Notes: generated from the sequence alone by a model not told the origin. Counted from the first letter of the stretch, positions 11,518-38,645 are shown. The stretch is 64,000 bases of DNA from Parcubacteria group bacterium GW2011_GWC2_42_12 (GCA_000997945.1 LCCP01000002.1:14284-78283), one strand, 5' to 3'. A program made the numbers and translations.

Positions 11518-14500
11518 ATGCTTAATCCAATTAAAACTTCCGATTTTGACGCCATTAAATTAAAATTAGCTTCGCCTGAAGTAATTTTAAATTGGTCGCA
11601 TGGCGAAGTCACCAGGCCGGAAACCATAAATTACCGAACGCAGAAACCGGAGAAAGACGGCTTGTTCTGCGAGCGCATTTTCGGGCCGTCCAAGGATTGG
11701 GAATGTTGTTGCGGCAAATACAAGAAAATTCGCTATAAAGGCATAATTTGCGATAAATGCGGGGTGGAGATTACGAGAAGCTTGGTTAGGCGCGAACGGA
11801 TGGGCCATATCAAGTTGGAAGCGCCGGTAACTCATATTTGGTTTTTAAGAGGAACATCTTCAAAAATCGGCTTAATCATGGATCTATCCATGCAGGCACT
11901 GGAGAAAGTGGTTTATTTCGCCAGTTTTATAATTTCTGATGTTAACGAGGAGCTACGGCTGGCTACCATTGAGCAAATTAAGCAAGAATATAAAAATAAA
12001 AGAAAGACCATTGAGCAAGATGGGCAGAAACAGATTAATGAGATCAAAAATAAAAAAGGCAAATTACTCACTCAAGGCAAGAGTGAATTTGAGATTGAAG
12101 ATATCCTAAGCGCGGAAATTGAGGTTTTAGAAAAGATCAGGAATGACAAATATAATGATTTAGAGCAAGCCTTTGACCAAGCGCAGAAGGAACTTAAGGA
12201 CTTAAAGCCGTTAACCATTATTTCCGAAAGCGTTTATCAAAATTTAAGCTTGAAATACGGCCATATCTTTACGGCCGATATTGGCGCCGATGCCGTCAGG
12301 AAGCTATTGGCCAAAGTTGATTTTGCTAAATTAATTCCCATGCTAGAAAAAGAATTAGCCGTGGCGATTGATTCAAAAAAAGATAAATTGATTAGACGTT
12401 TAAAGCTTTTAAAGAGCTTGCAGCAAAATAATTTAAGGCCCGAATGGATGATTTTGACCGTGGTGCCGGTAATACCGCCGGATCTCCGTCCTATGGTGCC
12501 GCTGGACGGCGGCCGGTTCGCCACCTCCGACTTAAATGATTTGTATCGCCGGATTATTAACCGCAATAATCGCTTAAGGCAGCTCTTAGATCTTAACGCG
12601 CCCGAGGTTATTTGCCGCAATGAAAAAAGAATGCTGCAGGAGGCGGTGGACGCGCTGGTAGATAATTCCATCAGGCACGGCAAGACCGTGGTGGCTTCAA
12701 CCGGGCAAAAAAGAATGCTTAAGTCGTTGGCTGATTCGCTTAAAGGCAAGCAAGGCCGGTTCAGGCAGAATTTATTAGGCAAGAGAGTGGATTATTCCGG
12801 CCGCAGCGTCATCGTGGTTAATCCTAATTTAAAATTGGACCAATGCGGTTTGCCCAAGCGCATGGCTTTAGAGTTATTTAAGCCCTTTATTATTTCCCAG
12901 CTCATCAATAAAGAGATTGTTCATAATGTTAGAAGCGCTTCTCGTTTTATTGAATCCGGGAAAGAGGAAGTTTGGGATATTCTGGAAGACATTGTTAAGA
13001 ACGCTTATGTCTTCCTCAATCGCGCGCCGACCCTGCATCGCTTAGGCATCCAGGCCTTTAAGCCGATCTTAATTGAAGGTTTGGCTTTGCAGATTCATCC
13101 GCTCGTTTGTACGGCTTTTAACGCCGACTTTGACGGCGATCAAATGGCCGTTCATGTGCCTTTGACCGAGGAAGCTATCGCCGAAGCTCGCGACATTATG
13201 CTTTCTAGCCACAATCTGCTTAAGCCGGCTACTGGCGACCCGGTAGTAACACCCAACCAAGATATTGTCTGGGGAGCTTTTTATATTACCAATATCGGTC
13301 CAGATTACGCGGCCGTTGATGGAACCAAATTAAAGAATTTTTACGCGCCCGAAGACGCCATGCTGTCCTATAACCTGGAAAATATAAAATTGCAGCAAAA
13401 GATCAGGGTGATGATTAACGGCAAGTTTATCATCACTTCGGTCGGCCGGATTATTTTTAACGAAGCTCTGCCGGTTAAGCTTAGGTTTGTCAACGAAGTC
13501 GTGGGCAAGAGCCGGTTAAGGAATCTAATCAAGGAATGTTTAAGGCACTTTGGCGAGCAAGCGACCATTGATTTATTGGATAAGATTAAAAATACCAGCT
13601 TTAAATATATTACTAAGAGCGGATTATCTTGGGGCATGGATGATATACCTCATCTTTATGAAAAGGATCAGATGATTGTTAATGCTACGGCTCAAGCCGA
13701 AGAAATCGGCGAACAATATCGCGACGGGCTCTTAACCGATAGCGAGCGCTATTCTAAAATTATTGAGCTTTGGACCACGGTTAAAGAGAAGGTTACGGAA
13801 ATTTGCCGTAATCATTTGCCTAAGGACGGACCGGTTTTTTCCATGATTGAATCAGGCGCGCGCGGTTCCTGGGCGCAGTTAACGCAGATTTTGGGCATGA
13901 AGGGCTTGGTAACCTCTCCTTCGGGCGATATTATTGAATTGCCGGTGACGGGTAATTTTAAAAAAGGTTTTAGCGTTTTGGAATATTTTATCGCCACGCA
14001 CGGCGTCCGCAAGGGTTTATCCGATACGGCTTTGAGAACCTCTAACGCCGGTTATTTAACCAGGCGTTTAGTCGATGTTTCCCAGGATATTATCGTGGTG
14101 AATGACGATTGCGGCGACAAAGAAGGGTTATTGATTGTTAAGAAAGAAAGCGAAGAAATGGGCGAGAATTTAGTTAAGCGCATGACCGGCAGATTTTTGG
14201 CGGCTGATTTAAAGAATAAGGCCGGTAAAGTTTTGTTAAAGACCGGCGAGCTCGTAACCGAGGATATCGCGGATAAAATTGCTAAAGAAGATATCAGAGA
14301 AGTGAAAGTTAGGTCAGTCCTGACCTGTAAAATACATCGCGGTATTTGCTCAAAATGCTATGGTTACGATTTGGCCTATAACAAACCGGTGAAAATCGGC
14401 ACGGCCGTAGGTATCATCGCCGCCCAATCCATCGGCGAACCGGGTACGCAGCTTACCATGAGAACTTTCCATACCGGCGGTGTGGCCGGCCAGGAAGATA

Positions 14501-15519
14501 TTACCCAGGGTCTGCCGCGCGTAGAAGAAATATTTGAAGCCAGGCCGCCGAAGAAGAAGGCCTTTATCGCTGATGTTGCCGGTACGGTTAAGATTGAAAC
14601 CGGTCAAAGAACCATTACCAATGAAACCGGCGAGATGATTATCTCTAATCCCCAGGCCAAGATTTTAAAAGTCTATTATCAAGGTTTGGAGACCGAAAAA
14701 TACCATTTTGCCGAAGCGATTCGCGAGGCCGTGCTGGAGAGCAAGACCAATAAGAAACAAGAAGTTCACCCCGTTAAATCCCGCAAGGCGGGAATTCTGC
14801 CGAAAGCAGAATTATTTAACGGGGTAGAAATCTTAGTTAAAGATGGCGTTACGGTTAATAAAAATAGCGAGTTATTTTCCATCGGCAAGAAAGTTTTTAA
14901 AGCTAGGCAATCAGGCATCGTAAAAATAGAAGATAAATTAATTAAAGTCATGAGCCAAGCGGAAAAGACTAAAGAATATGTCGTGCCTAAGGGCTTTGGC
15001 ATTTGGGTTAAGGACGGCGAAGAGATTAAGATCGGCGATCAGCTGACCGACGGCTCGCTGGATCTGCATCAATTGTATAATTTGCGCGACAAGTTGGAAG
15101 TGCAAAAGTATATTATTAAAGAGATTCAATATGTTTATTCTTCCCAGGGCCAGCCTTTGAATGACAAGCATATAGAGATTATCGCGCGCCAGATGTTCGC
15201 CCGGGTTTATGTTAATGATGCCGGCACGACTGAATTATTGCCCGGCGAAATCGTGGAAAAAGCGATTTTTGACCGCGTCAACGATGAAGCAAATCTCGCC
15301 GGAAAGAAAGAAGCCAAAGGCGAAGAACTATTATTAGGTATTACCAAGTCATCGTTAACCACTAATAGCTTTTTATCGGCCGCTTCATTTCAAGAGACGG
15401 CCAGAGTTTTGATTGACGCGGCCGTCACCGGTAAGATTGATTATCTTGAAGGCCTAAAAGAGAATGTCATAATCGGCCGGCCGATTCCGGCCGGAACCGG
15501 GTATCGGGCGCAAGTATAA
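11518..15519 (+). CDS. rpoC: DNA-directed RNA polymerase subunit beta'
   Basis: 1333 aa; Zn-finger CCGKYKKIRYKGIICDKCG, catalytic NADFDGD motif, trigger loop and bridge helix regions. Confidence 0.97.
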   Translation: MLNPIKTSDFDAIKLKLASPEVILNWSHGEVTRPETINYRTQKPEKDGLFCERIFGPSKDWECCCGKYKKIRYKGIICDKCGVEITRSLVRRERMGHIKLEAPVTHIWFLRGTSSKIGLIMDLSMQALEKVVYFASFIISDVNEELRLATIEQIKQEYKNKRKTIEQDGQKQINEIKNKKGKLLTQGKSEFEIEDILSAEIEVLEKIRNDKYNDLEQAFDQAQKELKDLKPLTIISESVYQNLSLKYGHIFTADIGADAVRKLLAKVDFAKLIPMLEKELAVAIDSKKDKLIRRLKLLKSLQQNNLRPEWMILTVVPVIPPDLRPMVPLDGGRFATSDLNDLYRRIINRNNRLRQLLDLNAPEVICRNEKRMLQEAVDALVDNSIRHGKTVVASTGQKRMLKSLADSLKGKQGRFRQNLLGKRVDYSGRSVIVVNPNLKLDQCGLPKRMALELFKPFIISQLINKEIVHNVRSASRFIESGKEEVWDILEDIVKNAYVFLNRAPTLHRLGIQAFKPILIEGLALQIHPLVCTAFNADFDGDQMAVHVPLTEEAIAEARDIMLSSHNLLKPATGDPVVTPNQDIVWGAFYITNIGPDYAAVDGTKLKNFYAPEDAMLSYNLENIKLQQKIRVMINGKFIITSVGRIIFNEALPVKLRFVNEVVGKSRLRNLIKECLRHFGEQATIDLLDKIKNTSFKYITKSGLSWGMDDIPHLYEKDQMIVNATAQAEEIGEQYRDGLLTDSERYSKIIELWTTVKEKVTEICRNHLPKDGPVFSMIESGARGSWAQLTQILGMKGLVTSPSGDIIELPVTGNFKKGFSVLEYFIATHGVRKGLSDTALRTSNAGYLTRRLVDVSQDIIVVNDDCGDKEGLLIVKKESEEMGENLVKRMTGRFLAADLKNKAGKVLLKTGELVTEDIADKIAKEDIREVKVRSVLTCKIHRGICSKCYGYDLAYNKPVKIGTAVGIIAAQSIGEPGTQLTMRTFHTGGVAGQEDITQGLPRVEEIFEARPPKKKAFIADVAGTVKIETGQRTITNETGEMIISNPQAKILKVYYQGLETEKYHFAEAIREAVLESKTNKKQEVHPVKSRKAGILPKAELFNGVEILVKDGVTVNKNSELFSIGKKVFKARQSGIVKIEDKLIKVMSQAEKTKEYVVPKGFGIWVKDGEEIKIGDQLTDGSLDLHQLYNLRDKLEVQKYIIKEIQYVYSSQGQPLNDKHIEIIARQMFARVYVNDAGTTELLPGEIVEKAIFDRVNDEANLAGKKEAKGEELLLGITKSSLTTNSFLSAASFQETARVLIDAAVTGKIDYLEGLKENVIIGRPIPAGTGYRAQV

Positions 15520-15806: not shown

Positions 15807-16628
15807 TTATAATTGACGGATTCTTTCCGAATAGGCAGTAAGAGGCATCTTATGAATAGAGTCTCTCAAGTCCTCCTTAGAAACATTAAACGCGTCAAGA
15901 GTTCCTCTTAGGGCGGATACGGCTACTGCCCAGGCGTCTCGCTCTTCCTTTAAAACATTTTTTCCGGCAAACTCGTTAAGTTTTTGGGGTAAGAAAAAGT
16001 GGAGGTATGGTGAATTATAAATTTTTCTGGCCGTCGATTGTTTCACTGCCGTCCCTAGACCTTTTAGGGCTCCCCCGAGAGTGTCAGAATCAGAAATAAT
16101 TTTTTGCACAACTGTTGTATGACCTATCTCATGCAAAAGAGTCATTATACCCAGGAAGCTGTTAGGAGAAAAATAACAAAACACTTTATTTTTAGCTAAA
16201 CTGCTATGGAAATTTTTATTATCTATGGCAAAAAATATATCACGAACTTCAAAATCTTTCATTAAATCCAGTTCATTACCCGACGGATTATCAATCGAAA
16301 GACCTACCAATCGTCGGAATTTACCGGCTTCAATATCTTGTTTAAGCGATTCGGGGATTTCGTTTGAGGTTGAATAGGAATTAATCTCCTGCTCGCTTAA
16401 TGTTTCGTAAGTATACTCTAGCGTCCAGCCGTCTTTTAATTCAACTTTTTCTTTACCACTTTTTCCGTATTCAATATTGGGGTTAAATAAGCGGCGTACA
16501 CTTTCCGGATGCTGTTCAAAATGTTCCTGTTTGGTTTTGTGTTTTTCCTTGTCTGGCAAGGGAGGCTCAAGACGTCTTTCAAGGTAATTTTTTTTTGGAG
16601 CTTCAAATTTTGGCATTTCAATTCCCAT
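15807..16628 (-). CDS. putative zinc metallopeptidase (HExxH)
   Basis: The track lists this ORF as '+', but only the reverse complement encodes it: 16626..16628 is CAT (ATG), and revcomp of 16100-16125 gives LLHEIGHTT. HEIGH motif; 273 aa. Confidence 0.5.
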   Translation of the reverse strand: MGIEMPKFEAPKKNYLERRLEPPLPDKEKHKTKQEHFEQHPESVRRLFNPNIEYGKSGKEKVELKDGWTLEYTYETLSEQEINSYSTSNEIPESLKQDIEAGKFRRLVGLSIDNPSGNELDLMKDFEVRDIFFAIDNKNFHSSLAKNKVFCYFSPNSFLGIMTLLHEIGHTTVVQKIISDSDTLGGALKGLGTAVKQSTARKIYNSPYLHFFLPQKLNEFAGKNVLKEERDAWAVAVSALRGTLDAFNVSKEDLRDSIHKMPLTAYSERIRQL

Positions 16629-16641: not shown

Positions 16642-17577
16642 TTACAAATTATATTTTTTCGCGTTTTCGTCGGCCAGATGCTGGATATAAGCGATTTGCT
16701 CTTTGCCGCGTTGGTCTTTGAATAAATGTTTAAATCGGCCTTGGGGCTTTAAATAATCTTCAACGCGCGGCGGCTGGGCTGGCCGTTTCATAACCTCGCC
16801 CAGTTGGCCGTTAATATATTCCACTACCGGGTAGATGCCGGTTAGGGCGGCTAATTTAGCCAGCTCGATTGTGTCCTTAGGTTCGGTTTTCCAACCCGGA
16901 ATGCAAGGCACGAGAATCTGTAAGTAAGACGGGCCGGCCGCGGCCGCGGCCCTTTTAACTTTTTTTATAATATCCAGGGGGTAGGCGACCGTGGTTTGCG
17001 CCACATATTTTAGGCCATGAGCCAAAGCCACGGCCAGCATGTCTTTTTTCATAAAATGCGAGCCTATGCCGACGAGATCTGGCGATTTGCCGGCCGGCGT
17101 GGTTGTAGTATTGGCCGCCCAAGGCGTGGCCGCGGATGCCTGGGCGCCGGTGTTCATATAGCCCTCATTGTCATAGCAAACATATAAAATATTTTCGCCC
17201 CGTTCCCACAGGCCGCTAATCAGGCCGAAACCAATATCAAAAGTGCCGCCGTCGCCGCCTTGGGCAACCACAAAAATTTTCGAATTACGATTTTCGATTT
17301 TCGATTTGTAGTCCAGCGCCGCTCTAATTCCGCTGGCGACAGGCGCCGCGTTTTCAAATAGCGAATGTATCCAGGGCAGACCCCAGGAGCTTTCCGGATA
17401 GGCGGTGGTGACGACTTCTAAGCAGCCGGTGGCGTTAGCGATAATCGTCTTCGGGCCTAAAGCGTCGGCAACTAAGCGGGCCGCGATCATCTGGCCGCAG
17501 CCGGCGCAGGCGCGGTGGCCGGGAGAGAGCAGAGTTTTTGGCGGTGTTAGTGTAATTTTATTTATAGTGATTGGCAT
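16642..17577 (-). CDS. porB: 2-oxoacid (pyruvate):ferredoxin oxidoreductase beta subunit (TPP-binding)
   Basis: GHRACAGCG cysteine motif and GGDGGTFDIGFG...YDNEGYMNTG TPP-binding motif. Confidence 0.85.
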   Translation of the reverse strand: MPITINKITLTPPKTLLSPGHRACAGCGQMIAARLVADALGPKTIIANATGCLEVVTTAYPESSWGLPWIHSLFENAAPVASGIRAALDYKSKIENRNSKIFVVAQGGDGGTFDIGFGLISGLWERGENILYVCYDNEGYMNTGAQASAATPWAANTTTTPAGKSPDLVGIGSHFMKKDMLAVALAHGLKYVAQTTVAYPLDIIKKVKRAAAAAGPSYLQILVPCIPGWKTEPKDTIELAKLAALTGIYPVVEYINGQLGEVMKRPAQPPRVEDYLKPQGRFKHLFKDQRGKEQIAYIQHLADENAKKYNL

Positions 17578-17654
17578 AATTTTTATTAGTTTAAAATGTA
17601 AAAATTAAAGTTGAAAATGACAGTTAAAAATGTAAAGTGAAAATTTCGCTTGAT

Positions 17655-17755
17655 TGTCATTGCGAGCGATTGAAAGGAGCGAAGCAATCCCTGGTTCGAA
17701 GGGATTTACCAGAGATTGCTTCGTCGCCCTGAGTACAGGGCTCCTCGCAATGACA
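17655..17755. repeat. MITE-like nested-palindromic repeat, short subtype-1 copy C, embedded in a larger AT-rich inverted repeat (about 17585..17818) built from AAAATGTAAAAT motifs
   Basis: TGTCATTGCGAGCGATTGAAAGGAGCGAAGCAATCCCTGGTT...ACCAGAGATTGCTTCGTCGCC...GCTCCTCGCAATGACA; flanking TTTACATTTT/AAAATGTAAA arms are mutually inverted. Confidence 0.7.
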
Positions 17756-17814
17756 AAAGAATTTTAAATTTTACACTGTCATTTTACATTTTGAGATTTC
17801 AATTTTACATTTTT

Positions 17815-18024
17815 TTAATTCGTTTCCATTATTTGTTTTTTTATACTCTCAAGTTTTATTTTATTTTTTTGCTCCACAAATTTAGAGGCATTGAGGATTT
17901 CAATTAGCACCGGTTTTTTACCTTTGGAAAGGTGAATTATAAAATTTCCGAGTTCCAAACAATGGTCAATCGGATCTTTGGCTATTTCCCAACTTAAGAT
18001 ATTGGTTTCAATATCGTATTGCAT
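17815..18024 (-). CDS. DUF2283-family small protein (antitoxin-like partner of DUF4258)
   Basis: MQYDIETNILSWEIAKD...GNFIIHLSKGKKPVLIEILNASKF matches the DUF2283 pattern (YD.E.D.L.I......G.ivGiEIL.AS). Track ORF 17815..18066 starts inside repeat D, so the start is trimmed to the Met outside the repeat. Confidence 0.5.
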   Translation of the reverse strand: MQYDIETNILSWEIAKDPIDHCLELGNFIIHLSKGKKPVLIEILNASKFVEQKNKIKLESIKKQIMETN

Positions 18025-18033
18025 ATCTTTGTT

Positions 18034-18214
18034 TGTCATTGCGAGCTTCTGAAAGAAGCGAAGCAATCTCTGGTTAGAAATGTTTTATTAGTTTAAAGTT
18101 AAATTTCCCCAAACAAAATTTAATTTGTTAATCAGGGCTATTTCCTTTTTTCCATTTTTCTTTCTTACCAGAGATTGCTTCGTCTCCGCCGGCTGGCGGA
18201 TCCTCGCAATGACA
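18034..18214. repeat. MITE-like nested-palindromic repeat, subtype 1, copy D, inserted between the DUF4258 and DUF2283 genes
   Basis: TGTCATTGCGAGCTTCTGAAAGAAGCGAAGCAATCTCTGGTTAGAAA...TTTCTTACCAGAGATTGCTTCGTC...GATCCTCGCAATGACA. Confidence 0.75.
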
Positions 18215-18222
18215 AATAGGAG

Positions 18223-18438
18223 CTATTTCACCGGAAAGAAAGTCATGATTTTTAAAATATCTCCGTCTTTTTTATAAATAACTTTTATGCCTTCCTTTTG
18301 CGCCGCCATTAGCTTGCCCTTGCGATTTTGTTTTTCCGGCGCGGCCACGGCGTCTTCAACCTGTTCGCGCGTAAAAAAAACCTTATGTCTATTTAAAATA
18401 TCAAATTTTTGTTCGGCGTATTTTGTGAAATAAAACAT
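18223..18438 (-). CDS. DUF4258-like small protein (putative toxin of a DUF4258/DUF2283 pair)
   Basis: MFYFTKYAEQKFDILNRHKVFFTREQVEDAV...GIKVIYKKDGDILKIMTFFPVK follows the DUF4258 pattern (FTKHA..K...R...........V.VVY...gd..ViTvy). Confidence 0.45.
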   Translation of the reverse strand: MFYFTKYAEQKFDILNRHKVFFTREQVEDAVAAPEKQNRKGKLMAAQKEGIKVIYKKDGDILKIMTFFPVK

Positions 18439-18442
18439 AAAT

Positions 18443-18844
18443 TTAAATTAACTTAACTCTTTTATATAAATATACATCGGCTATGGCAAAGATTTTCTTC
18501 GTCCAGGAGAGAAATTCATCGGCCTCTTTCTTAGAAATAAGCGCGCCACCGCCATAAAGATCCCAGTTTCGCTTGGCGCGCATTTCTTGGCCGATAATTA
18601 TTATATCTTGCTCTTTTATGATTTCTGACAGCTTGTTTATCAGCTCGGCCTGGTGCCCTTGGCGCGATTTCACCCGCAGATTATTTTTAGCGCAAACGGC
18701 GATAGCCAATTTCAGCAAAGCGTCATAGGAGAATTTAAAAATAACTTCCGGAATGTCCGAAGTTTGGGCGATCTTTAGATCGCGCGCTGCGGATTTATAG
18801 TATTGATCAATTTGCCTTGAGGTAAAAGCGAATTTTTCAAACAT
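18443..18844 (-). CDS. HEPN-domain protein (toxin-like partner of the upstream MNT)
   Basis: 133 aa, all-helical, contains RVKSRQGH (Rx6H HEPN-like motif); overlaps the MNT gene stop by 1 nt. Confidence 0.45.
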   Translation of the reverse strand: MFEKFAFTSRQIDQYYKSAARDLKIAQTSDIPEVIFKFSYDALLKLAIAVCAKNNLRVKSRQGHQAELINKLSEIIKEQDIIIIGQEMRAKRNWDLYGGGALISKKEADEFLSWTKKIFAIADVYLYKRVKLI

Positions 18845-19389
18845 TAGATTAGTTTTATGGTTTTATGGCCGAAAATATTGGCTATTAATTCGTCTTTTTG
18901 TTTTTTCCTTTTTTTAAGATCCGCCGCGGTTAGGTCAATGATATTAAACTCTCTCTTGAATTCCTTTTCCGTTTTAATCAGCAATCTTTTAGCTTCGATT
19001 GAAGAATGGCTGCCGATGAGGAGGATATCAATATCGCTGGCCGGCCCGAATTTATTATTGGCGTAGGAACCGAAAATATAAGCGTTGGTTAATTCGGGCA
19101 GATCTTTAAGCAGAGCCGTCAGCCGATTTTCCAGGCCATATTTTAAATGATAGAGTTTTTTTAATTCGTTTAACAGGGGATAGCGCCGATTTAGAGAATA
19201 ATGCCTTTGGTTGCCGATTGGCTTGGAGATTAAAACATTTTCCTTTTCCAGTTCTTTTAATTTTCTGTCTAAGTTGCCCGGGTCAAGAGAGAGCGCTCTA
19301 GCCAGTTCGTTGATGTAGTGTTCGGCGCCGGTATTGACGAAGTAATAGCCAAGCAATTTTTCGGTAATTTTTGATTTGAAATCAAGCAT
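18844..19389 (-). CDS. nucleotidyltransferase (MNT-type) with N-terminal winged-helix DNA-binding domain
   Basis: N-terminal HTH (INELARALSLDPGNLDRKLKELEKENVL); C-terminal YIFGSYANNKFGPASDIDILLIG (GS...DxD). Track start 19419 lies inside the operator palindromes, so the start is taken at the downstream Met (19389). Confidence 0.55.
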   Translation of the reverse strand: MLDFKSKITEKLLGYYFVNTGAEHYINELARALSLDPGNLDRKLKELEKENVLISKPIGNQRHYSLNRRYPLLNELKKLYHLKYGLENRLTALLKDLPELTNAYIFGSYANNKFGPASDIDILLIGSHSSIEAKRLLIKTEKEFKREFNIIDLTAADLKKRKKQKDELIANIFGHKTIKLI

Positions 19390-19396
19390 ATTTTTA

Positions 19397-19434
19397 TTGT
19401 AAATATTTACAATAATCATTGTATATTATTACAA
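19397..19434. promoter_or_regulatory. tandem TTGTA-N6-TACAA palindromes (putative TA-operon operators)
   Basis: TTGTAAATATTTACAA at 19397..19412 and TTGTATATTATTACAA at 19419..19434; the first is repeated exactly at 20244..20259. Confidence 0.45.
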
Positions 19435-19442
19435 TAGAATTA

Positions 19443-19526
19443 TCAAGTCTGTCCGCGCGTCAGAAATATTTTATGTTTATTTAAAATATCAAATTTTTGC
19501 TCGGCGTATTTAGTAAAATAGATCAT
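19443..19526 (-). pseudogene. truncated duplicate of the DUF4258 gene 5' end (27 codons)
   Basis: revcomp encodes MIYFTKYAEQKFDILNKHKIFLTRGQT*; ~85% nt identity to the 5' end of 18223..18438. Confidence 0.5.
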
Positions 19527-19813
19527 ATATCAATTTGATATGTTATAACCGCGACAGCACCTCTTTAATATCAATTCCGCCTTTTTTTATTTTGGTAAAA
19601 TCAATGACTTTTTTCCATGGCTTGCCGGCCGTCTTTTTGTTTCTTCTCATAGTTATTCTCTAATTTTAGGTATTTTTTTAGCTATTGACATCATATTAAA
19701 TTGTGCTATACTAATCATAGGTATCAATCAGTGGAACTCTAGTGTCCGAAGCATCTTTAATAACAATTTCAAATTTTTGGGGTTGTTATTTTTTTTGTGC
19801 TAAAATAATAATC

Positions 19814-19913
19814 GTGGTAGGTGGTAGGTATTTCCCGGTGGCCCGGGACACTGATTGATACCCAGCTGATGCTCTTACGGGCATGGGGTTCGATTCCTCT
19901 GCCTACCGCGCCA
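19814..19913 (+). tRNA. tRNA-like element, non-canonical (possible tRNA pseudogene or integration-site remnant)
   Basis: T-loop GGGGTTCGATTCC, D-arm TCCC-GGTGGCCC-GGGA with a GG pair, 7-bp acceptor pairing GGTAGGT/GCCTACC (or the outer GTGGTAG/CTACCGC followed by G-CCA); 5' acceptor strand is tandemly duplicated (GTGGTAGGTGGTAGGT). Possible anticodon loop TTGATAC (GAU) closed by mismatched pairs. Class-II-like length with a CTTACGG variable arm; no clean cloverleaf. Confidence 0.3.
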
Positions 19914-19960
19914 AAGCCATCTCAATCCGAGGTGGTTTTTGGTTTGCCAAAATTTTAAAA

Positions 19961-20122
19961 TTACATTAAATCGGCTAACGATTTTAATTTATAAACTTTT
20001 CCTTCTTTATAATCCCTTTCCGCTCTTTTTATCATTTTCAATAGATCTTCAGCCGAAATTAATTCATCATTCGCCTCTGATAATGGCAGAGAATTATTTT
20101 TTTTTAATTTTTTCTTTGTCAT
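19961..20122 (-). CDS. small hypothetical protein (53 aa), antitoxin-like by context
   Basis: revcomp encodes MTKKKLKKNNSLPLSEANDELISAEDLLKMIKRAERDYKEGKVYKLKSLADLM; own promoter and palindromic operator upstream. Confidence 0.25.
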   Translation of the reverse strand: MTKKKLKKNNSLPLSEANDELISAEDLLKMIKRAERDYKEGKVYKLKSLADLM

Positions 20123-20162
20123 TTTTGTGGTCGATGAGGGACATAATAATCCCTTATATAAT

Positions 20163-20196
20163 AGTAATATTGTATACAGCTGTATTACAATGTCAA
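20163..20196 (-). promoter_or_regulatory. sigma70-like promoter on the minus strand (TTGACA-16 bp-TACAAT) overlapping a near-palindrome TTGTAATACAGCTGTATACAA
   Basis: revcomp of 20163..20196 reads TTGACATTGTAATACAGCTGTATACAAT, upstream of the 19961..20122 ORF. Confidence 0.4.
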
Positions 20197-20243
20197 GGTG
20201 GTGAAGAAGAGCGGGTTATTTTCGCATATATTTACAATGATTA

Positions 20244-20259
20244 TTGTAAATATTTACAA
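20244..20259. promoter_or_regulatory. TTGTAAATATTTACAA palindrome (second copy of the TA operator)
   Basis: Identical 16-bp palindrome to 19397..19412. Confidence 0.45.
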
Positions 20260-20304
20260 TAAAATATTAAGCCCGCTCGCGCGCCAGAAAAACTTTATGT
20301 TTAT

Positions 20305-20388
20305 TTAAAATATCAAATTTTTGCCTTGCCTCGCTGTAGCTTCGGCGAAGCGGGTCGTAGCTTCGGCGTATTTGATAAAGTAGAACAT
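20305..20388 (-). pseudogene. second truncated duplicate of the DUF4258 5' end, with an internal 18-bp tandem duplication
   Basis: revcomp MFYFIKYAEATTRFAEATARQGKNLIF*; shares CGCGCG(T/C)CAGAAA..TTATGTTTATTTAAAATATCAAATTTTTGC with the 19443..19526 copy; internal tandem repeat GCCGAAGCTAC(G/A). Confidence 0.45.
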
Positions 20389-20389
20389 A

Positions 20390-21331
20390 TTATTTTGTTG
20401 CACATTTATAACCAGAACCAATGCTTTGACATTCACCATTAGGCATATAGCTTGGAGTGACAGGAGAAGTGTTGAGTTTTTTGCAATCATCCAGAGACAA
20501 ATTTATTTTAGCAATACAATCTTTCCAATAATTGTTACTGAAACTCGTATAAAAATTATAAAGACAGCATGGCGTAGGATTAGGATCTGCTTTTACTTCG
20601 CAGAAATAGCCCCCGCTTAATTCCTGTTTACATATGCCATACTCTGTATATTTTCCATTAAGGGTTTTTTCACAATAAGTTGGTGAAAAATTTGCTTTAT
20701 CATCGCAAGACCTCCGACCGCTTCCAACATAATTCCAAGCACAGCATGACACCGCAGGACATACTCCTCCCTTTATAAAATTACCAGCCTTTTTATCACA
20801 AGCCTCTTCGCTAAGAACAATTTCGCAAATAGATGTTTCTGGCGAATTCCGGTATGTGCAGCTCCCGTTAACCTGTTCCGCCACCCCTGGTATTTTGGTA
20901 ATCTGTAAATTTACCAGCGCCGGATTAACCGTGCTTAAGATTAAATAAGAGGTTAGGGCCAGAACCAGGCCGGTCAGGGCGGCGCCGATATAGGCCTTGG
21001 CTTCGCCGATTTGCGTGGCGTTGCCGCCGGCCACGATCCAGAGCACGCCGCCGACCATTAAGACCACGGCGGCTAAGATACCGATAATGCCGATGGCGTA
21101 GTTGTAAATCGCCCTAATGTATTTAGCAATCGGCGCAGTAGAGTCGTTTGGATCGAATTTATAACTGCCGCCCGGCGCAAAGTCCTTTTCTGCGCCAGGT
21201 ATGCCGACTTGTGGTTTAAATTCAATCGCCTGACTGGCGACCGGCGCGGCTAATAAGAAAAAGACAAAGATCATTTGTAAAATAAATACGGTCAGAAAGA
21301 AGATGGTTAGAATTTTGGGGAAAGATTTCAT
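20390..21331 (-). CDS. secreted Cys-rich protein with VirB2/TrbC-like pilin N-terminal module
   Basis: Signal anchor, then two hydrophobic helices IYNYAIGIIGILAAVVLMVGGVLWIVAGGNATQIGEAKAYIGAALTGLVLALTSYLILS (VirB2/TrbC-like hairpin); C-terminal ~170 aa with 17 Cys. Paralogous N-terminal module to 50787.. and 53694.. Confidence 0.5.
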   Translation of the reverse strand: MKSFPKILTIFFLTVFILQMIFVFFLLAAPVASQAIEFKPQVGIPGAEKDFAPGGSYKFDPNDSTAPIAKYIRAIYNYAIGIIGILAAVVLMVGGVLWIVAGGNATQIGEAKAYIGAALTGLVLALTSYLILSTVNPALVNLQITKIPGVAEQVNGSCTYRNSPETSICEIVLSEEACDKKAGNFIKGGVCPAVSCCAWNYVGSGRRSCDDKANFSPTYCEKTLNGKYTEYGICKQELSGGYFCEVKADPNPTPCCLYNFYTSFSNNYWKDCIAKINLSLDDCKKLNTSPVTPSYMPNGECQSIGSGYKCATK

Positions 21332-21343
21332 AAAATTTTATAC

Positions 21344-21502
21344 TGTCATTGCGAACGACCGTTTATTTTTGTCATTCCCGCGAAGGCGGGAATCCAGATT
21401 AATTTTCGTTTTATCTTTCTGGATCCCCGGGTCTCGCTGGCGCTCGCCCGAGGATGACAGGAGAGGAGATTGCTTCGTCGCTGCTGCTCCTCGCAATGAC
21501 AA
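21344..21502. repeat. MITE-like nested-palindromic repeat, variant copy E (contains GTCATTCCCGCGAAGGCGGGAATCCAG sub-hairpin)
   Basis: TGTCATTGCGAACGACCG...TGTCATTCCCGCGAAGGCGGGAATCCAG...GAGATTGCTTCGTCGCTGCTGCTCCTCGCAATGACA. Confidence 0.7.
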
Positions 21503-21509: not shown

Positions 21510-22826
21510 TTATTTTCCAACGAATGTAGCTTGGTCACTTTTTTTGCCGGTCTGTTTAATTATTTTTTTAATTATTTCTTTGGTAATATCGCGTCCGCCT
21601 AGGCCGACGATGAAACTGGAAATATTGGCATTGGTCTGGCCTTGAGCCACGGCTTTAATGTCCGAAGCTAACGGACCAATATGGCCTAGAGAAATGGATT
21701 TATCTATAACCGCGACATTTTTAGCTGGTTTGATAATTTTTAGAATTTGTTCGGCCGGGAAGGGGCGGAAACATTTGATTTTTAGGATGCCAACGCCACC
21801 GATCCTTCTATTAGAGAACAAACCCCCCTCGCTCCCCTTGTCAGGGGGGAAGTTGCTAACCGTGTCTTTAATAGTGCCGATGACCGAACCCATAGCCACT
21901 AGTATAGTGTCGGGATTTTTTGGACCGGTATATTCCAGCCAGCCGTTATCAACTGTTATCAAATCTTTACTAGAATTTTTAATTTTGTCCCCCTTCGCTA
22001 ACGCTGCGGAGGATAAATAATTTTTAATTTTTAATGAAGGAAAAATTTTATGAAAAGCTTTATATTCCTGGTCAATAGTTTTTAGGCTGGCGATTAAGTC
22101 TTCATGCAATTCTTGCCTGATTTCCATATAATGGGCGGGCGCGGCTAAGGGGCCCATGGTGATGGGATTAGCCGGATCAAGGAAGGTTCCGGGCGCAGGC
22201 GCGTAATCTGGCAGGTATTTTTTTATCTGTTCGGCCGAGGGGATAATCACCGGTTCATACGAATGGGTCATAATATAACCGTCAACATTCACCATGACCG
22301 GCAGCTTAAGTCGCTCGGCAATTTTAAAGGCCATGATATGCTGGCTAACCGCTTCCTGGTGGTTTTCCGCGAACAAGAGAATCCAGCCGGCGTCTCTTAC
22401 TGCCATCACATCTTGCTGATCATTCCAAATATTGATTGGAGCTGACACGGCGCGGTTAGCGCAAGTTATGACCACGGGTAGACGCAGGCCGGCGATATTA
22501 AAAATTACCTCAATCATAAGCAAGAGCCCTTGCGAGCTGGTGGCGCTATAGGTTCGCACGCCAGTGGCGCTGGCGCCCAAAATAATAGAAGCGGCCGCAA
22601 ATTCTGATTCAGCCCGAACATATTCGTAGTCGGCCTGACCCCGCCCACCTCGCGAGCGAAACGTCGCGGGCGCGGCGTCGGCTTTAAATTGGGCCAGGTC
22701 TTCAACAATATGCGTTTGCGGCGTAATCGGGTAAGCGGAAATAACCGCCGGGGCGATATTTTTTACGGTTAGAGCGATGGCCCGGGAACCTTCTAACATC
22801 TGTTGTTTATTATTTTTGTTATTCAT
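21510..22826 (-). CDS. porA: 2-oxoacid (pyruvate):ferredoxin oxidoreductase alpha subunit
   Basis: 438 aa; typical PorA/KorA N-terminal and central regions; carries an in-frame GC-hairpin element at 21823..21849. Confidence 0.88.
   Translation of the reverse strand: MNNKNNKQQMLEGSRAIALTVKNIAPAVISAYPITPQTHIVEDLAQFKADAAPATFRSRGGRGQADYEYVRAESEFAAASIILGASATGVRTYSATSSQGLLLMIEVIFNIAGLRLPVVITCANRAVSAPINIWNDQQDVMAVRDAGWILLFAENHQEAVSQHIMAFKIAERLKLPVMVNVDGYIMTHSYEPVIIPSAEQIKKYLPDYAPAPGTFLDPANPITMGPLAAPAHYMEIRQELHEDLIASLKTIDQEYKAFHKIFPSLKIKNYLSSAALAKGDKIKNSSKDLITVDNGWLEYTGPKNPDTILVAMGSVIGTIKDTVSNFPPDKGSEGGLFSNRRIGGVGILKIKCFRPFPAEQILKIIKPAKNVAVIDKSISLGHIGPLASDIKAVAQGQTNANISSFIVGLGGRDITKEIIKKIIKQTGKKSDQATFVGK
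21823..21849. repeat. GC-rich short palindromic element, in-frame within porA
   Basis: CCCCCCTCGCTCCCCTTGTCAGGGGGG, encoding ...FPPDKGSEGG... in PorA. Confidence 0.6.
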
Positions 22827-22836: not shown

Positions 22837-23028
22837 TGTCATTGCGAGCGACCGAAGGGAGCGAAGTCATCGCTACGCGAGATCTGGCGTAGCCATGACA
22901 ATCTCACGAACAATGTGTATAGAAAATTATATTAAATGGTATGTTTAGTGGCTATTCGTCATGTCTGAGATTGCCTGCCTACCGGTAGGCAGGCTTCGTC
23001 GCTCGAGTACGAGCTCCTCGCAATGACA
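22837..23028. repeat. MITE-like nested-palindromic repeat, subtype 2, copy F (porD-porA spacer)
   Basis: TGTCATTGCGAGCGACCGAAGGGAGCGAAG...CTACGCGAGATCTGGCGTAGCCATGACAATCTCACGAAC...GAGATTGCCTGCCTACCGGTAGGCAGGCTTCGTCGCTCGAGTACGAGCTCCTCGCAATGACA. Confidence 0.75.
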
Positions 23029-23036: not shown

Positions 23037-23309
23037 TCACTTCTGATCTAATTCCATCACAATCGCCTTGAACGGGCAGACCTCGGCGCATAAACTGCAG
23101 CCCTTGCAGTAGTTAAAGTCGCAGTCATAAGGCAATTTGCCCAAGGAATTTATTTTGTCAATTTGCTTAATTATGCCTTCCGGGCAGACGCGCGGGCAGA
23201 TGCCGCAAGCCGTGCATTTATCATATAAAAATTTTGGCTTTAAAGTGCGCCAGGAGCCGGTTTTATTATTCATCGTCGTTTTAGGTTTTACGGTAATTGG
23301 TATTTTCAT
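23037..23309 (-). CDS. porD: 2-oxoacid:ferredoxin oxidoreductase delta subunit (2x[4Fe-4S] ferredoxin)
   Basis: Two CxxCxxCxxxCP motifs (CTACGICPRVCP, CKGCSLCAEVCP). Confidence 0.8.
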   Translation of the reverse strand: MKIPITVKPKTTMNNKTGSWRTLKPKFLYDKCTACGICPRVCPEGIIKQIDKINSLGKLPYDCDFNYCKGCSLCAEVCPFKAIVMELDQK

Positions 23310-23323: not shown

Positions 23324-23366
23324 TGTCATTGCGAGCTCCGACCAAGGCGTCGGAGCTCGCAATGAC
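23324..23366. repeat. minimal hairpin form of the TGTCATTGCGAG repeat (copy G, porG-porD spacer)
   Basis: TGTCATTGCGAGCTCCGAC-caaggc-GTCGGAGCTCGCAATGAC, perfect 19-bp stem. Confidence 0.7.
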
Positions 23367-23376: not shown

Positions 23377-23916
23377 TCAAATTTTATATGCTCGCTCTAT
23401 GGCCCTAATGTTTTTAGCTATTAATTCATTATGTCCGGCAAATTTTTCTTCAATCGCTTCGGTCAGTGATTTCAAGCTGATTAGTCCGGTAGCTTTGGCG
23501 AAACTGCCAAGGATAACCGTATTAACAATATTCTTGCCGATAATTTCCAAAGCGATCTTAGTCGCGTCAATGGTATGGATATTATTTAGCGGGAAATTTA
23601 TTTTTAGTTCAGCCTTGGTTTTGGCCGTGTTAATTATAATTATGGTTTTTTTATCTACGCCCTTAGCAACTTCCGGAGTTTCTAGCAAAGTGGGATCCTG
23701 AATAATTAAAATATCCGGCCGATAAATCTGCTGCCTCGTTATGATTGGTTGATCATCAATTCTGGCAAATGATTCTACCGGAGCGCCAGTCCTTTCCGCG
23801 CCGAAAGAAGGAAAGGCCTGGGCCTCTCTCCCGCCCTTAAAAGCGGCGGTGGCAATTAATTCCGCGGCGGTTACCACGCCTTGGCCGCCGCGGCCGTGAA
23901 TTCGTATTTCAATCAT
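23377..23916 (-). CDS. porG: 2-oxoacid:ferredoxin oxidoreductase gamma subunit
   Basis: MIEIRIHGRGGQGVVTAAELIATAAF N-terminal signature of PorG. Confidence 0.85.
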   Translation of the reverse strand: MIEIRIHGRGGQGVVTAAELIATAAFKGGREAQAFPSFGAERTGAPVESFARIDDQPIITRQQIYRPDILIIQDPTLLETPEVAKGVDKKTIIIINTAKTKAELKINFPLNNIHTIDATKIALEIIGKNIVNTVILGSFAKATGLISLKSLTEAIEEKFAGHNELIAKNIRAIERAYKI

Positions 23917-24165: not shown

Positions 24166-24864
24166 TTATTTTCTAAGCTGTTCTATTATTTGTATAAAGA
24201 CATCAAGCGGAACATCGCCGGCTAGCTTATAGCCGTTAATAAAATAGGTCGGCGTGCCGGCGATGCCGAAATTTTGCCCGTCGGACAGATCCTTCTGAAT
24301 TTGGGGAAGATATTTTTTTTGGTTCAGACAATTTTTAAACTTAACTTGGTCGGCGCCGATTTGGTTGGCTAAAGCATTGAGCTCATCGGCCTGGACGGCC
24401 TTATTATCCGTCTGACCCACGCCTTGGTTTTGAAATAATTTGTCATGCATGGGCCAGAATAAGCCCTGCTCGCCCGCGCAGCGTCCGGCTAAAGCCAGAG
24501 TAGCTGAATAATCGGAAACTACCGGGTAATCTCGCCAGATGAATTTTATATCATTTTTGTATTTTAAGCTAATCTCCCTAACGGTAGGAAACGATTGCAA
24601 GCAAACCGGACAAGCAAAGTCGCCGAATTCCACGATGGTGATTTTGGCGTTAGTTGAACCAAGCCAATAACTATTGCTGGCCGCGGCCGGATATTGCTCA
24701 CCAGTTAATTCCCGTCCGGCCTGGCTAAGTTTAAGTTTAGCATTTCTTATTTCACCCAGAAAGTAAAAAGCGCTCGCCGCCAGGAAAAATAAAACTATGG
24801 CCAGGATTATGATTATTAAGACGCCCCACCATTTCCTATACCAAATTTTATTTGAATATTCCAT
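24166..24864 (-). CDS. membrane-anchored DsbA-like thiol:disulfide oxidoreductase
   Basis: N-terminal TM, thioredoxin fold with CPVC active site (FGDFACPVCLQ). Confidence 0.7.
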   Translation of the reverse strand: MEYSNKIWYRKWWGVLIIIILAIVLFFLAASAFYFLGEIRNAKLKLSQAGRELTGEQYPAAASNSYWLGSTNAKITIVEFGDFACPVCLQSFPTVREISLKYKNDIKFIWRDYPVVSDYSATLALAGRCAGEQGLFWPMHDKLFQNQGVGQTDNKAVQADELNALANQIGADQVKFKNCLNQKKYLPQIQKDLSDGQNFGIAGTPTYFINGYKLAGDVPLDVFIQIIEQLRK

Positions 24865-30000: not shown

Positions 30001-30080
30001 AAATAAAGAAGTGGTTGGATGGGAAAGAAATAAAGAAAGTAATTTTCGTTAAGGGAAAGTTAGTTAATGTAGTTATCTAA
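27060..30080 (+). CDS. leuS: leucine--tRNA ligase with an inserted alpha/beta-hydrolase (RBBP9/YdeN-like) domain
   Basis: HVGH (HIGH) motif, CP1 editing domain, KMSKR (KMSKS). About 190 extra residues (nt ~28410..28960) sit between the zinc-knuckle halves HCQAC and CPQCGG: IFIHGYGSSGKEGWRPWLKREL...ILIGGSLGG (GxSxG). Confidence 0.93.
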   Translation: MEKYNHQKIEAKWQKKWNKEKLYKTSGNKDKPKYYVLDMFPYPSGSGLHVGHPKGYIATDIFARAKMMQGYNVLHPMGWDAFGLPTENYAMQNKIHPCAATEKNIATFKRQLGLLGFTYDWDREINTTDPEYYKWTQWTFLKMFERGLAYESYEPINWCPKCQTGLSNEDLEDGKCERCDSVVEKKPMRQWLLKITDYADRLLSDLEKLPAWEESIKEMQRNWIGRKEGINIDYKIEGLDSKLSVFTTRPDTNFGATFIVAAPDSVFTAEKIGSFPNQAEVKKYVEAARHKTELERISEGRKKTGVFTGLNAINNLTGRKMPIYISDFILASVGTGVVVGVPGHDLRDFEFAQAMGLEIIRVVVGADGDTSPITKKEQVQEEAGTMINSGLLDGMNIHDATRKIMDHIETKDWGKKIVSYKIKDWVFSRQRYWGEPIPIIHCQACKNKKYNFIFIHGYGSSGKEGWRPWLKRELEGRGHKAYSPDLPNSLKPNVDEQADFIIKNVELGEDTILIGGSLGGVVIMRILEKIKIKIAKAVFIDSVFKPEFADHDRPDVAAACDWKFNFKKISQASSSFVVLADSDFPVIKKEHSEELAKKFNTSVTYVKPNGQHFSKSATEPEILKIFGNLGIVIVPYEDLPLKLPEVKNYQPTGTGESPLANIKEWVNTKCPQCGGRALRETNTMPQWAGSSWYYLRYIDPKNKTALVDKDKEKYWSPVDFYVGGAEHATRHLIYARFWHKFLFDIGAVNYDEPFTRLQHVGLILAEDGRKMSKRWNNVINPDEIVEKYGADAMRIYEMFMGPFSQPCAWSTKSLIGGRRFLEKIWHFYHQVKLFDCGGVGCDKAPTGLPQLMHKTIKKVTEDIENFHYNTAISQMMIFMNFASQLDSVPRGALENFLKILAPFAPHLTEELWSGLGHPSAKLGTSKQSIFKEEWPKYNPELVKDETINLVIQINGKVRDTVEVFADISEKEAREFALDSEKIKKWLDGKEIKKVIFVKGKLVNVVI

Positions 30081-38547: not shown

Positions 38548-38645
38548 GTCATTGCGAGCGACCGTAGGGAGCGAAGCAATCTCACGCACGTCTTATATAA
38601 TTATTCGTGGGATTGCTTCGTCGCCGAAGCTCCTCGCAATGACAA
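38548..38645. repeat. MITE-like nested-palindromic repeat, short subtype-2 copy J (AGTCATTGCGAG variant terminus)
   Basis: GTCATTGCGAGCGACCGTAGGGAGCGAAGCAATCTCACGCACG...TTCGTGGGATTGCTTCGTCGCCGAAGCTCCTCGCAATGACAA. Confidence 0.7.

Follow-up and report, generated by a model that had tools for sequence, protein, structure and literature searches.

Toxin-antitoxin (TA) systems of type VII, represented by HepT/MntA, neutralize the RNase activity of their toxin by AMPylation. A module resembling this type lies inside a metabolic gene cluster of a groundwater organism, the Parcubacteria group bacterium GW2011_GWC2_42_12, a member of the candidate phyla radiation (CPR), within 3.9 kb of non-por DNA that separates porA from porB, the genes for the alpha and beta subunits of a 2-oxoacid:ferredoxin oxidoreductase. 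The history of this gap is considered here on the basis of a stretch of 64,000 nucleotides (GCA_000997945.1, LCCP01000002.1:14284-78283; the window) and its comparison with related genomes.

Two further groups of described elements frame the comparison. DUF4258 is counted among the TA toxin families with a BECR fold (PMC11980606). Allo-tRNAs are defined by a 12-bp acceptor branch (8/4 or 9/3), a D arm with tetraloop like that of tRNA-Sec, a long variable arm and G73 or U73 (PMC5389517). They were first found as tRNA-Sec false positives, often beside TA systems, in hosts given as Clostridia, Proteobacteria and Acidobacteria (PMC5389517; PMC7609411), and a large subgroup with an Ile anticodon, allo-tRNA(UAU), carries stem-destabilizing changes and is inactive in translation (PMC5389517). 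Each component of the porA-porB gap belongs to a known class: a type VII-like HEPN/MNT module, RelE/Phd remnants, an allo-tRNA-like RNA, repeats resembling repetitive extragenic palindromic (REP) elements and a PF18895-type protein. Less expected are the long residence of a pilin-like gene and of RelE-like and DUF2283-like genes in a por cluster, a reproducible junction between gene fragments and TA cassettes, and the presence of an allo-tRNA-like gene in a CPR genome.

The analysis indicates, with good probability, that the gap has a history in two layers. In the older, ancestral layer, the order DsbA-porG-porD-porA-pilin-71aa-DUF2283-porB would have been laid down on one strand, with the three non-por residents probably co-transcribed with the por genes. 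In the younger layer, TA cassettes would repeatedly have entered the few bases between the stop codon of the pilin-like gene and the start codon of the 71-aa gene. Open reading frames (ORFs) called in six frames and searched against Pfam place all por-cluster genes on the minus strand, in the order that the original prediction had given for porG, porD, porA, the gap, porB and a protease-like HExxH gene:

24166-24864, minus strand: DsbA-like gene at the head of the cluster
23377-23916, minus strand: porG
23037-23309, minus strand: porD
21510-22826, minus strand: porA, alpha subunit (POR_N E 8e-68, PFOR_II E 6e-21)
20390-21331, minus strand: 313-aa pilin-like membrane protein with a T4SS_pilin/VirB2-like module (PF18895, 23.9 bits)
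18223-18438, minus strand: 71-aa protein of the RelE-superfamily fold (DUF4258-like), a single-copy resident, assigned with AlphaFold2 and Foldseek
17815-18024, minus strand: DUF2283-like protein of 69 aa, counted from the start codon ATG at 18024 (PF10049, 20.2 bits)
16642-17577, minus strand: porB, beta subunit binding thiamine pyrophosphate, intact (TPP_enzyme_C E 5e-19)
15807-16628, minus strand: 273-aa ORF with a HEIGH (HExxH) motif, downstream of porB

The evidence for the older layer comes from synteny. With PorB as query, 80 loci of GTDB species representatives were collected, onto which the window proteins were mapped by tblastn. All 10 related Patescibacteria contigs that reach from porA to porB have the pilin-like, 71-aa and DUF2283-like genes in the gap. 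Specifically, L003, L007, L009, L010 and L011 (PorB identity 67-75%; the contig of L011 starts inside porA) carry DsbA-porG-porD-porA-pilin-71aa-DUF2283-porB with one or two copies of the pilin-like gene, and the gene tables of L091 (PorB 89%), L097 (PorB 86%), L123, L124 and L125 give the same order. The partial contigs L002, L004, L005 and L008 are consistent with the order pilin-71aa-DUF2283, and deeper relatives (L012-L014, PorB about 59%) retain porA-pilin-porB, with gaps of only 5 and 9 nt in L014. Since this synteny holds in all spanning relatives, the pilin-like gene and the 71-aa/DUF2283-like pair form an ancestral core, not an island. Only about 2 kb (approximately 18443-20272), comprising the MNT-HEPN module, the small ORFs orf53 and orf35, the tRNA-like gene and duplicated 5' ends, is lineage-specific.

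The original prediction had instead described an island that splits the por operon. That description stands in so far as the gap does contain non-por genes and decayed addiction-module DNA, and fails in so far as it implies one insertion into a contiguous porGDAB; for about half of the gap, related genomes show the same order with conserved genes. A single degraded integrative or addiction-module island of 3.9 kb would account for the low GC content (0.29-0.41 over 17600-20800, against 0.44-0.54 in the por genes), for the concentration of TA-type genes, truncated duplicates and a tRNA-like sequence, and for the direct adjacency of porA and porB in about 60 non-CPR loci. It is nevertheless highly improbable, given the synteny of all three residents in every spanning relative and of the pilin-like gene in three deeper ones. 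Furthermore, Pfam detected no recombinase or integrase in the interval or among ten flanking ORFs tested (between 2.7 and 31.3 kb of the window), the whole interval has no flanking direct repeats, and the tRNA-like element is a full cloverleaf with promoter and terminator rather than the 3'-half remnant of an att site. An assembly artefact is excluded because the structure of the locus recurs at 99-100% identity in nine more contigs (L081-L089) from independent NCBI, JGI and ENA assemblies. As such, a split metabolic operon in a CPR genome need not mean a recent island, and because the residents have travelled with the por genes through the whole clade, porB should not be regarded as an orphan in annotation or in metabolic reconstruction. 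The gene itself aligns with close relatives over 100% of its length at 81-90% identity.

The younger layer is seen in the slot between the pilin stop and the 71-aa start, which differs from genome to genome:

L124: empty, 5 nt
L123: one 143-aa gene
L003, L005 and L125: a Phd-like gene of 70 aa and a ParE/RelE-like gene of about 80 aa (79-aa ParE)
L097: orf76 and a YafQ/RelE-like gene of 90 aa, then Phd70 and RelE80
L122: a RelB-like gene of 87 aa and a gene of 126 aa, then wHTH-MNT and HEPN
L091 (PorB 89%, the nearest relative that lacks cassettes): one additional Cys-rich fragment plus a short, dead copy of the 5' end

The slot thus appears to be an insertion hotspot for small TA cassettes and, being seen empty, with one or two cassettes, or with decayed ones, offers a comparative series for TA turnover. 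Like chromosomal TA and defense hotspots and integron arrays, it is a fixed position that holds different two-gene modules in each genome, stacked head to tail and each with its own promoter. It differs from integron cassette arrays in having neither an integrase nor an attC-like site, and from both integron arrays and TA hotspots in its boundary, which is a truncated 5' copy of the neighboring gene joined at a TTGA microhomology. The window has the following contents in its slot:

18443-18844, minus strand: 133-aa HEPN-fold protein, putative HepT-like toxin, assigned with AlphaFold2 and Foldseek
18844-19389, minus strand: wHTH-MNT, 181 aa, MntA-like nucleotidyltransferase antitoxin with a winged helix, assigned with Pfam
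19392-19446, minus strand: MNT promoter TTGATA-17-TACAAT, which overlaps two tandem 16-18-bp palindromes, a predicted operator
19449-19530, minus strand: H2, a truncated copy of the 71-aa gene (26 codons and a stop)
19543-19650, minus strand: orf35, C-terminal remnant of a 70-aa Phd/YefM-like antitoxin, matching the 3' ends of Phd-like genes
19685-19940, plus strand: allo-tRNA-like transcription unit with promoter, leader of about 100 nt, body and terminator
19961-20122, minus strand: orf53, what is left of a 76-aa antitoxin-like protein after loss of its N-terminal part (its DNA is 81% identical to the 3' part of L097 orf76)
20196-20169, minus strand: orf53 promoter TTGACA-16-TACAAT with its own palindrome, from the promoter scan
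20222-20265, minus strand: degenerate copy of the MNT-type double palindrome, upstream of the orf53 promoter
20273-20388, minus strand: H3, the oldest truncated copy of the 71-aa gene, interrupted by a small GC-rich repeat insert

The truncated copies, H2 and H3, carry the argument on how cassettes arrive. Together with the intact gene they make three copies in the window of the first approximately 80 nt (26 codons) of the 71-aa gene, where no truncated 5' copies are expected by chance, and they correspond to the two truncated duplicates noted by the original prediction. H2 is 84% identical to 18361-18442 (translated match MIYFTKYAEQKFDILNKHKIFLTRGQ), and an element of the same type also precedes the MNT module in L122. 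The ATG of H3 lies 1 nt after the pilin stop, the position at which the intact 71-aa gene starts in L124, 5 nt after the pilin-like gene. Extra 5' copies were likewise found in L122 (one), in L097 (two) and in L091 (a short remnant of the H3 type), those interrupted in the manner of H3 being in L097 and L091. All copies end with ...ACGCGCG-N7-TTGA, except the L091 remnant, which stops about 40 nt earlier, and the -35 box into which they run belongs to differing cassettes (MNT-HEPN, orf76-RelE90 or Phd70-RelE80). At the junction point the intact gene reads CAG GTT GAA GA (GTTGAAGA), and the same cassettes have their own TTGAC -35 box elsewhere, where no H copy precedes them. The copies are most alike within one genome (80/80 in L097, 66/80 in the window). 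An apparent 5' copy in L005 was discarded as an assembly-gap artefact (a run of N); in L004 a match extends over 8 aa. Within H3, at 20363, the window lacks 31 nt of a tandem GC-rich repeat present in nine other contigs of the same population (L083 4183-4215), a difference that reflects polymorphism among strains or else collapse of the repeat.

The likeliest mechanism behind these junctions is one in which a cassette enters at or just upstream of the 71-aa 5' end by target-duplicating recombination. Each insertion would leave behind a 5' copy of about 80 nt, cut at the TTGA that also serves as -35 box of the cassette promoter, while the intact 71-aa gene persists downstream. The join could take place at the TTGA microhomology, through homology in the 80-nt H segment or through a single crossover of an H-bearing circle, with DNA supplied by related genomes rather than inserted by an integrase, and only products in which the downstream gene stayed whole and the cassette promoter still worked would have survived. 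A different explanation, which we judge improbable, regards the H segment as a dedicated recombination site at which a recombinase encoded elsewhere stacks cassettes in the manner of an integron. It would explain why three cassettes are joined to H at the same position before TTGA, why arrays of the form H-cassette-H-cassette-gene occur in the window, L097 and L122, and why H3 remains at the original position of the gene. Against it stand the lack of a recombinase among the flanking ORFs tested, the lack of an attC-like internal palindrome in H, the restriction of H copies to three or four genomes, and the occurrence of cassettes without H (Phd-ParE in L003, L005 and L125; MNT-HEPN in L126 and L128). 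Microhomology would, moreover, suffice, because TTGA is common to the 71-aa gene and to the -35 boxes of the cassettes. The stricter reading of H as an integron-like attC site was rejected, since a direct reading of H contains no palindrome and no integrase was found. The repeatable TTGA junction could show by what route TA genes are acquired and shed in small genomes that have no obvious enzymes of mobile elements.

In the window, the slot holds one intact, self-regulated type VII-like module next to an older, decayed cassette region. The original prediction of an HTH-MNT gene followed by a HEPN gene holds for both members. The winged helix-turn-helix MNT protein (wHTH-MNT) matches Polbeta at 43.6 bits and NTP_transf_2 at 38.1 bits, both above the gathering score; its N-terminus gives weak MarR/ArsR matches, and its translation contains the GSx10DxD motif (GSYANNKFGPASDID). 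Its match to the NCBIfam model MntA_antitoxin (E 4.9e-8, 32.8 bits) lies below the cut-off of 60. Searches of the 133-aa protein against Pfam, NCBIfam and PDB sequences gave no direct match, and its HEPN assignment comes from an alignment-based AlphaFold model (predicted local distance difference test, pLDDT, 93) with best Foldseek matches to AF_0298, the HEPN domain of sacsin, ST0689 and MntA-HepT (7bxo). PF05168 is matched by 9 of its 43 homologues, not by the window protein itself. Across this family R57 is invariant and H64 nearly invariant, which gives an Rx6H motif, and Y97 is invariant near a conserved RNxDLY motif. Because neither protein reaches the cut-offs of the curated MntA and HEPN models, the module represents a divergent, mostly CPR subfamily. 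It shares with HepT/MntA the 1-nt overlap between the nucleotidyltransferase gene and a HEPN gene of about 130 aa, the GSx10DxD and Rx6H motifs and mobility, and differs from it in the N-terminal winged helix and the double-palindrome predicted operator. Homologous modules sit between unrelated genes in other CPR genomes (L126, L128) with the same double palindrome upstream, the half-sites of which co-vary (TTGTAA...TTACAA versus TAGTAA...TTACTA). Because these unrelated contexts share the palindrome with co-varying half-sites, the module is taken to be both mobile and self-regulated. A tblastn search found no counterparts of MNT-HEPN, orf53 or orf35 at this position in the GTDB relatives.

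The decayed region consists of cassettes that have lost their toxins. The 53-aa ORF, rightly described in the original prediction as antitoxin-like with its own promoter and operator-like palindrome, aligns with the C-terminal two-thirds of L097 orf76, whose full-length gene is preceded by the orthologous promoter; its partner toxin, a 90-aa YafQ/RelE-family protein in L097, is missing here and would have been lost. Similarly, orf35 combines a new N-terminus with the last approximately 20 residues of a Phd-like antitoxin that has homologous genes in L097, L003 and L005. In those genomes the Phd-like gene precedes a ParE/RelE-like toxin gene of about 80 aa, so that a toxin of this type would have been lost from the window as well. 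L122 also carries a 35-aa version of orf35.

On this history, the decayed region also received an 8/4 allo-tRNA-like gene that has the anticodon GAU and would be transcribed on its own. Its parts are as follows:

19685-19712, plus strand: promoter TTGACA-16-(TG)TATACT, sigma-70 type, in agreement with the consensus at 11 of its 12 positions and bearing an extended -10 TG
19821-19913 (19823-19909 in ARAGORN), plus strand: tRNA-like body
19917-19940, plus strand: hairpin and T5 terminator

The original prediction of a non-canonical tRNA-like element is borne out. ARAGORN at default settings reports no tRNA anywhere in the window, whereas at 80% stringency it reports a tRNA-Ile(GAU) with an 8-bp acceptor stem and a 4-bp T stem; two extra acceptor pairs are possible, which would extend the stem to up to 10 bp (10/4). 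The Rfam model of tRNA-Sec (RF01852) matches 19822-19908 with 36.8 bits (E 9e-5), below its gathering score of 47. The body has a 6-bp D stem with a UGGC tetraloop, a 6-bp variable stem with a UUAC loop, a G discriminator and the anticodon loop UUGAUAC. Its acceptor, D, variable and T arms pair perfectly but for three G-U pairs, and folding gives z = -4.1 when the body is taken alone and z = -5.4 with the full transcript. The anticodon stem is weak (3 to 5 pairs, with two A-C mismatches or a bulge, -0.9 kcal/mol). A genuine tRNA or tRNA-Sec was rejected on the empty default ARAGORN result, the sub-threshold Rfam score and the anticodon GAU (tRNA-Sec has UCA and an 8/5 or 9/4 branch). An attachment-site remnant was rejected in view of the complete cloverleaf, both halves included, with promoter and terminator.

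With the (8/4) allo-tRNAs and the allo-tRNA-like sequences of TA loci the element shares the sub-threshold tRNA-Sec match, the 8/4 branch, the D arm, the long variable arm, the G discriminator, a sense (Ile) anticodon, the stem-destabilizing mismatches and the location among TA genes. The elongated, well-paired anticodon stem of allo-tRNAs is not found here, and in this respect the element resembles the inactive, stem-destabilized allo-tRNA(UAU) group. It departs from the published examples in its Parcubacteria host, in its anticodon (GAU instead of the common UAU), in its two additional potential acceptor pairs and in a leader that is complementary to the anticodon arm. An allo-tRNA-like gene beside TA genes is thus now seen in a CPR bacterium, a group outside the hosts named in PMC5389517 and PMC7609411. 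The 14 nt of the leader at 19720-19733 match the complement of the anticodon arm (19849-19862) at every position and include an AUC codon matching the GAU anticodon. The duplex has a predicted energy of -19.7 kcal/mol, and the fold that uses it lies 3.5 kcal/mol above the minimum free energy; the complement could be a processing or activity switch.

Homology with relatives ends exactly at the edges of the tRNA-like unit, at 19684 and 19964, and the unit occupies the place of the L097 RelE90 toxin, H2 copy, Phd70 promoter and 5' part of Phd70. At the position of its promoter and leader, L122 (1-140, reverse strand) has unrelated sequence that ends in a hairpin-T-run terminator of the same direction, at which point the contig ends; in L122 this site may house another small RNA gene. 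Searches for related sequences gave no match in viral contigs and, in a scan of metagenomes, 24 matches that comprise its own contig (1), ordinary tRNA genes (21, mostly tRNA-Cys) and unconvincing GC-rich sequences (2). A covariance model of the gene run over 28 related loci and the window found no relative. No second copy of the tRNA-like sequence turned up in these searches, and none of the ORFs tested at this locus encodes an integrase.

Whether the RNA still has a function can be weighed from the same data. A functionless, decaying pseudo-tRNA, that is, a dead allo-tRNA or tRNA paralogue brought in with a cassette, is a possible reading, though one we hold to be less than even in likelihood. 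It would fit the rejection by default ARAGORN and by the Rfam threshold, the two A-C mismatches in an anticodon stem of such low stability, the empty homologue searches, the decayed TA genes alongside, and the inactivity in translation of stem-destabilized allo-tRNA(UAU) (PMC5389517). It fits poorly with a promoter so close to consensus and bearing the extended -10 TG, with the hairpin-T5 terminator, with the nearly perfect pairing and strongly negative z-scores of the other arms and the transcript, and with 100% conservation of the gene across comparable assemblies of this population. At the opposite end, the 71-aa 5' end could be a reusable docking site of a gene-capture array and the allo-tRNA-like RNA a working part of a conflict locus, a speculative idea to which we give very little credence. 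If true, capture would be integrase-independent or due to an unknown recombinase, with the -35 box of the cassette promoter completed at the junction. The RNA, in turn, could act as a mistranslator that is charged with Ser and decodes Ile codons, or as a decoy that draws HEPN/RelE toxins away from the tRNAs they cleave, and its activity could be gated by the anticodon-masking leader.

The resident genes themselves are assigned at the level of fold or superfamily. The Cys-rich VirB2-like protein of the original prediction corresponds to the 313-aa pilin-like protein, whose T4SS_pilin match (E 4.5e-5, residues 67-133, the two-helix core) falls short of the gathering score of 26.6 and whose variable C-terminal region contains 16 Cys; the same weak PF18895 match recurs on pilin-like orthologues at the same position in relatives. 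Between close relatives, the two-helix core (20876-21133) keeps 82-88% DNA identity, whereas no DNA similarity is detectable in the Cys-rich C-terminal domain (20390-20875). An additional, free-standing Cys-rich fragment is present in L091 (6566-7127). Together, the conserved DsbA-like gene and the Cys-rich domain hint at a surface domain that lies outside the cytoplasm, is held by disulfide bonds and undergoes diversifying change.

For the 71-aa protein, direct searches of Pfam (no match even at E <= 5), NCBIfam and PDB sequences were all empty. Its AlphaFold2 model (pLDDT 95) matches YafQ, RelE, YoeB and ParE in Foldseek with a probability of about 1 and TM scores of 0.55-0.70. It thus shares the beta-alpha-alpha-beta4 fold of the RelE/ParE (BECR) toxins, which include DUF4258 proteins with DUF2283 neighbors. 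DUF4258 (PF14076) is weakly matched by 10 of 42 orthologues (best E 0.008) and is the only Pfam family that they match repeatedly, none of them reaching threshold. The DUF2283-like protein scores below the PF10049 gathering score of 23, and its orthologues show equally weak matches. The earlier DUF4258 and DUF2283 assignments are therefore borne out as to fold or superfamily, both scoring below the thresholds of the families. The 71-aa protein has 195 homologues, of which the 120 listed span 70-116 aa, most of them 71-73; all attached organism names are Patescibacteria/CPR or unclassified bacterium, and none has a Pfam assignment. In contrast to DUF4258 toxins, the family is apparently narrow, CPR-restricted and fixed in position beside porB, not a patchy mobile TA system. 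Unlike in TA pairs of the RelE/ParE type, the toxin-like gene stands first, and unlike in DUF4258/DUF2283 pairs, the DUF2283-like gene is kept without the 71-aa gene in L006. The L006 arrangement argues that the DUF2283-like protein may be something other than simply the antitoxin of the 71-aa protein.

The persistence of these genes raises the question whether the pilin-like gene and the 71-aa/DUF2283-like pair function with the oxidoreductase, for instance in membrane anchoring or redox-linked regulation, and are not neutral passengers. Their position is conserved down to a PorB identity of about 59%, and spacing as tight as that in L014 and L124 (5-9 nt) implies that the genes share a transcript. 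Additionally, relatives keep a DsbA-like gene as the first gene of the cluster, and the Cys-rich domain of the pilin-like protein is extracytoplasmic. In relatives porB is immediately preceded by the DUF2283-like gene, even in the rearranged L006, and the 71-aa family, apparently narrow, CPR-restricted and uniform in length, is unlike typical promiscuous toxins. Such a link is still rather unlikely in our estimation: close relatives differ greatly in the hypervariable C-terminal domain of the pilin-like protein, the three residents are missing from non-CPR por operons, and gene order kept in small, slowly rearranging genomes is by itself no proof of function. We know of no biochemical link between the resident families and 2-oxoacid:ferredoxin oxidoreductases.

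After these two layers, palindromic repeats would have spread into almost every intergenic gap, those of porG, porD and porA included. The motif GTCATTGCGAG has 31 matches in the window against 0.8 expected, and these form 15 inverted pairs, all intergenic (11319-63408). In each element, which resembles REP sequences and miniature inverted-repeat transposable elements (MITEs), an outer stem (GTCATTGCGAG/CTCGCAATGAC) and an inner stem (GAAGCAATCTCTGG/CCAGAGATTGCTTC) are nested, and folding is strong (z -7 to -11). Between rpoB and the DsbA-like gene lie 8 of the 15 pairs, and every por-cluster gap has one. Examples are:

17593-17813: the DUF2283-like/porB gap, with a REP-like palindrome at 17650-17760 that has AT-rich TGTAAAAT arms (z = -9.5)
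18035-18213: REP/MITE-like element in the gap between the 71-aa and DUF2283-like genes (z = -11)
21345-21500: REP/MITE-like element (GTCATTGCGAG ... CTCGCAATGAC) in the porA/pilin gap, one of the 15 pairs
23325-23366 and 38548-38643: further REP/MITE-like elements

The AT-rich TGTAAAAT arms belong to a repeat also found upstream of porG. The element at 18035-18213 is the repeat that the original prediction saw splitting the 71-aa/DUF2283-like pair, two genes that abut or overlap in L002, L003 and L009. The units of 50-190 nt, with nested perfect stems, an intergenic-only location and 15 occurrences in 64 kb, agree with REP/MITE-like repeats. They differ from enterobacterial REPs in their sequence family (GTCATTGCGAG...GAAGCAATCTCTGG) and in their density inside a metabolic operon, each por junction having one.

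How porB remains expressed had seemed puzzling in the original prediction. The promoter scan found no consensus promoter directly upstream of porB on its own strand; the minus-strand promoters that it found are those of orf53 and MNT. Between 20390 and 17578 the minus strand has no terminator-like site but one weak one inside the HEPN ORF. Expression of porB most likely comes from read-through from the por promoter, the cassette promoters or both, and this is the simplest account because the arrangement is old, the spacing in relatives is tight and the minus strand is poor in terminators.

Several observations weigh against the two-layer history or its parts. The synteny has an exception in L006 (8636-10921), where porB and the DUF2283-like gene stand without porGDA, the pilin-like gene or the 71-aa gene upstream; because only the DUF2283-like gene is kept before porB there, the por cluster can evidently be broken. 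That three unrelated cassettes share an identical junction is more in keeping with a site-specific process than with joins made at random microhomologies. MNT-HEPN is shared with L122 (PorB 81%) and absent from the closer relatives L091 and L097, and vertical inheritance with loss and horizontal replacement are inseparable for this module. For the tRNA-like gene, the fold has no covariation support because no homologue occurs in the sequences searched. Read-through and co-transcription are themselves deduced from spacing and consensus scans, and the stable REP hairpins between the genes (z -7 to -11) could attenuate or process the transcript.

Beyond the gap, the surroundings of the cluster vary as well. 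A 23S_rRNA_IVP-family gene (four-helix bundle) lies between porD and porA or just after porA in L097 (3126-3485), L124 (3288-3656) and L125 (3132-3509), and thus marks a second por-cluster site that tolerates accessory genes; in the window this position holds a REP element only (22838-23027). Downstream of porB, the 273-aa HEIGH-motif protein has no match in Pfam or NCBIfam, and its gene is absent between porB and rpoC in L091, L097 and L122-L125, which suggests a lineage-specific addition. In relatives without it, the convergent rpoC (11518-15519 in the window, where it likewise converges on the por cluster) comes directly after porB. The strain-variant contig L090 (1923-3599) has about 80 extra bases at the HEIGH-motif gene, which is called there as two pieces of 146 and 112 aa, and then an IS256/MULE-type transposase in place of rpoC. 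On the other side of the cluster, the gene for leucyl-tRNA synthetase (27060-30080) has an alpha/beta-hydrolase (Ser_hydrolase) domain inserted at residues of about 453-610, as does its orthologue in L091.

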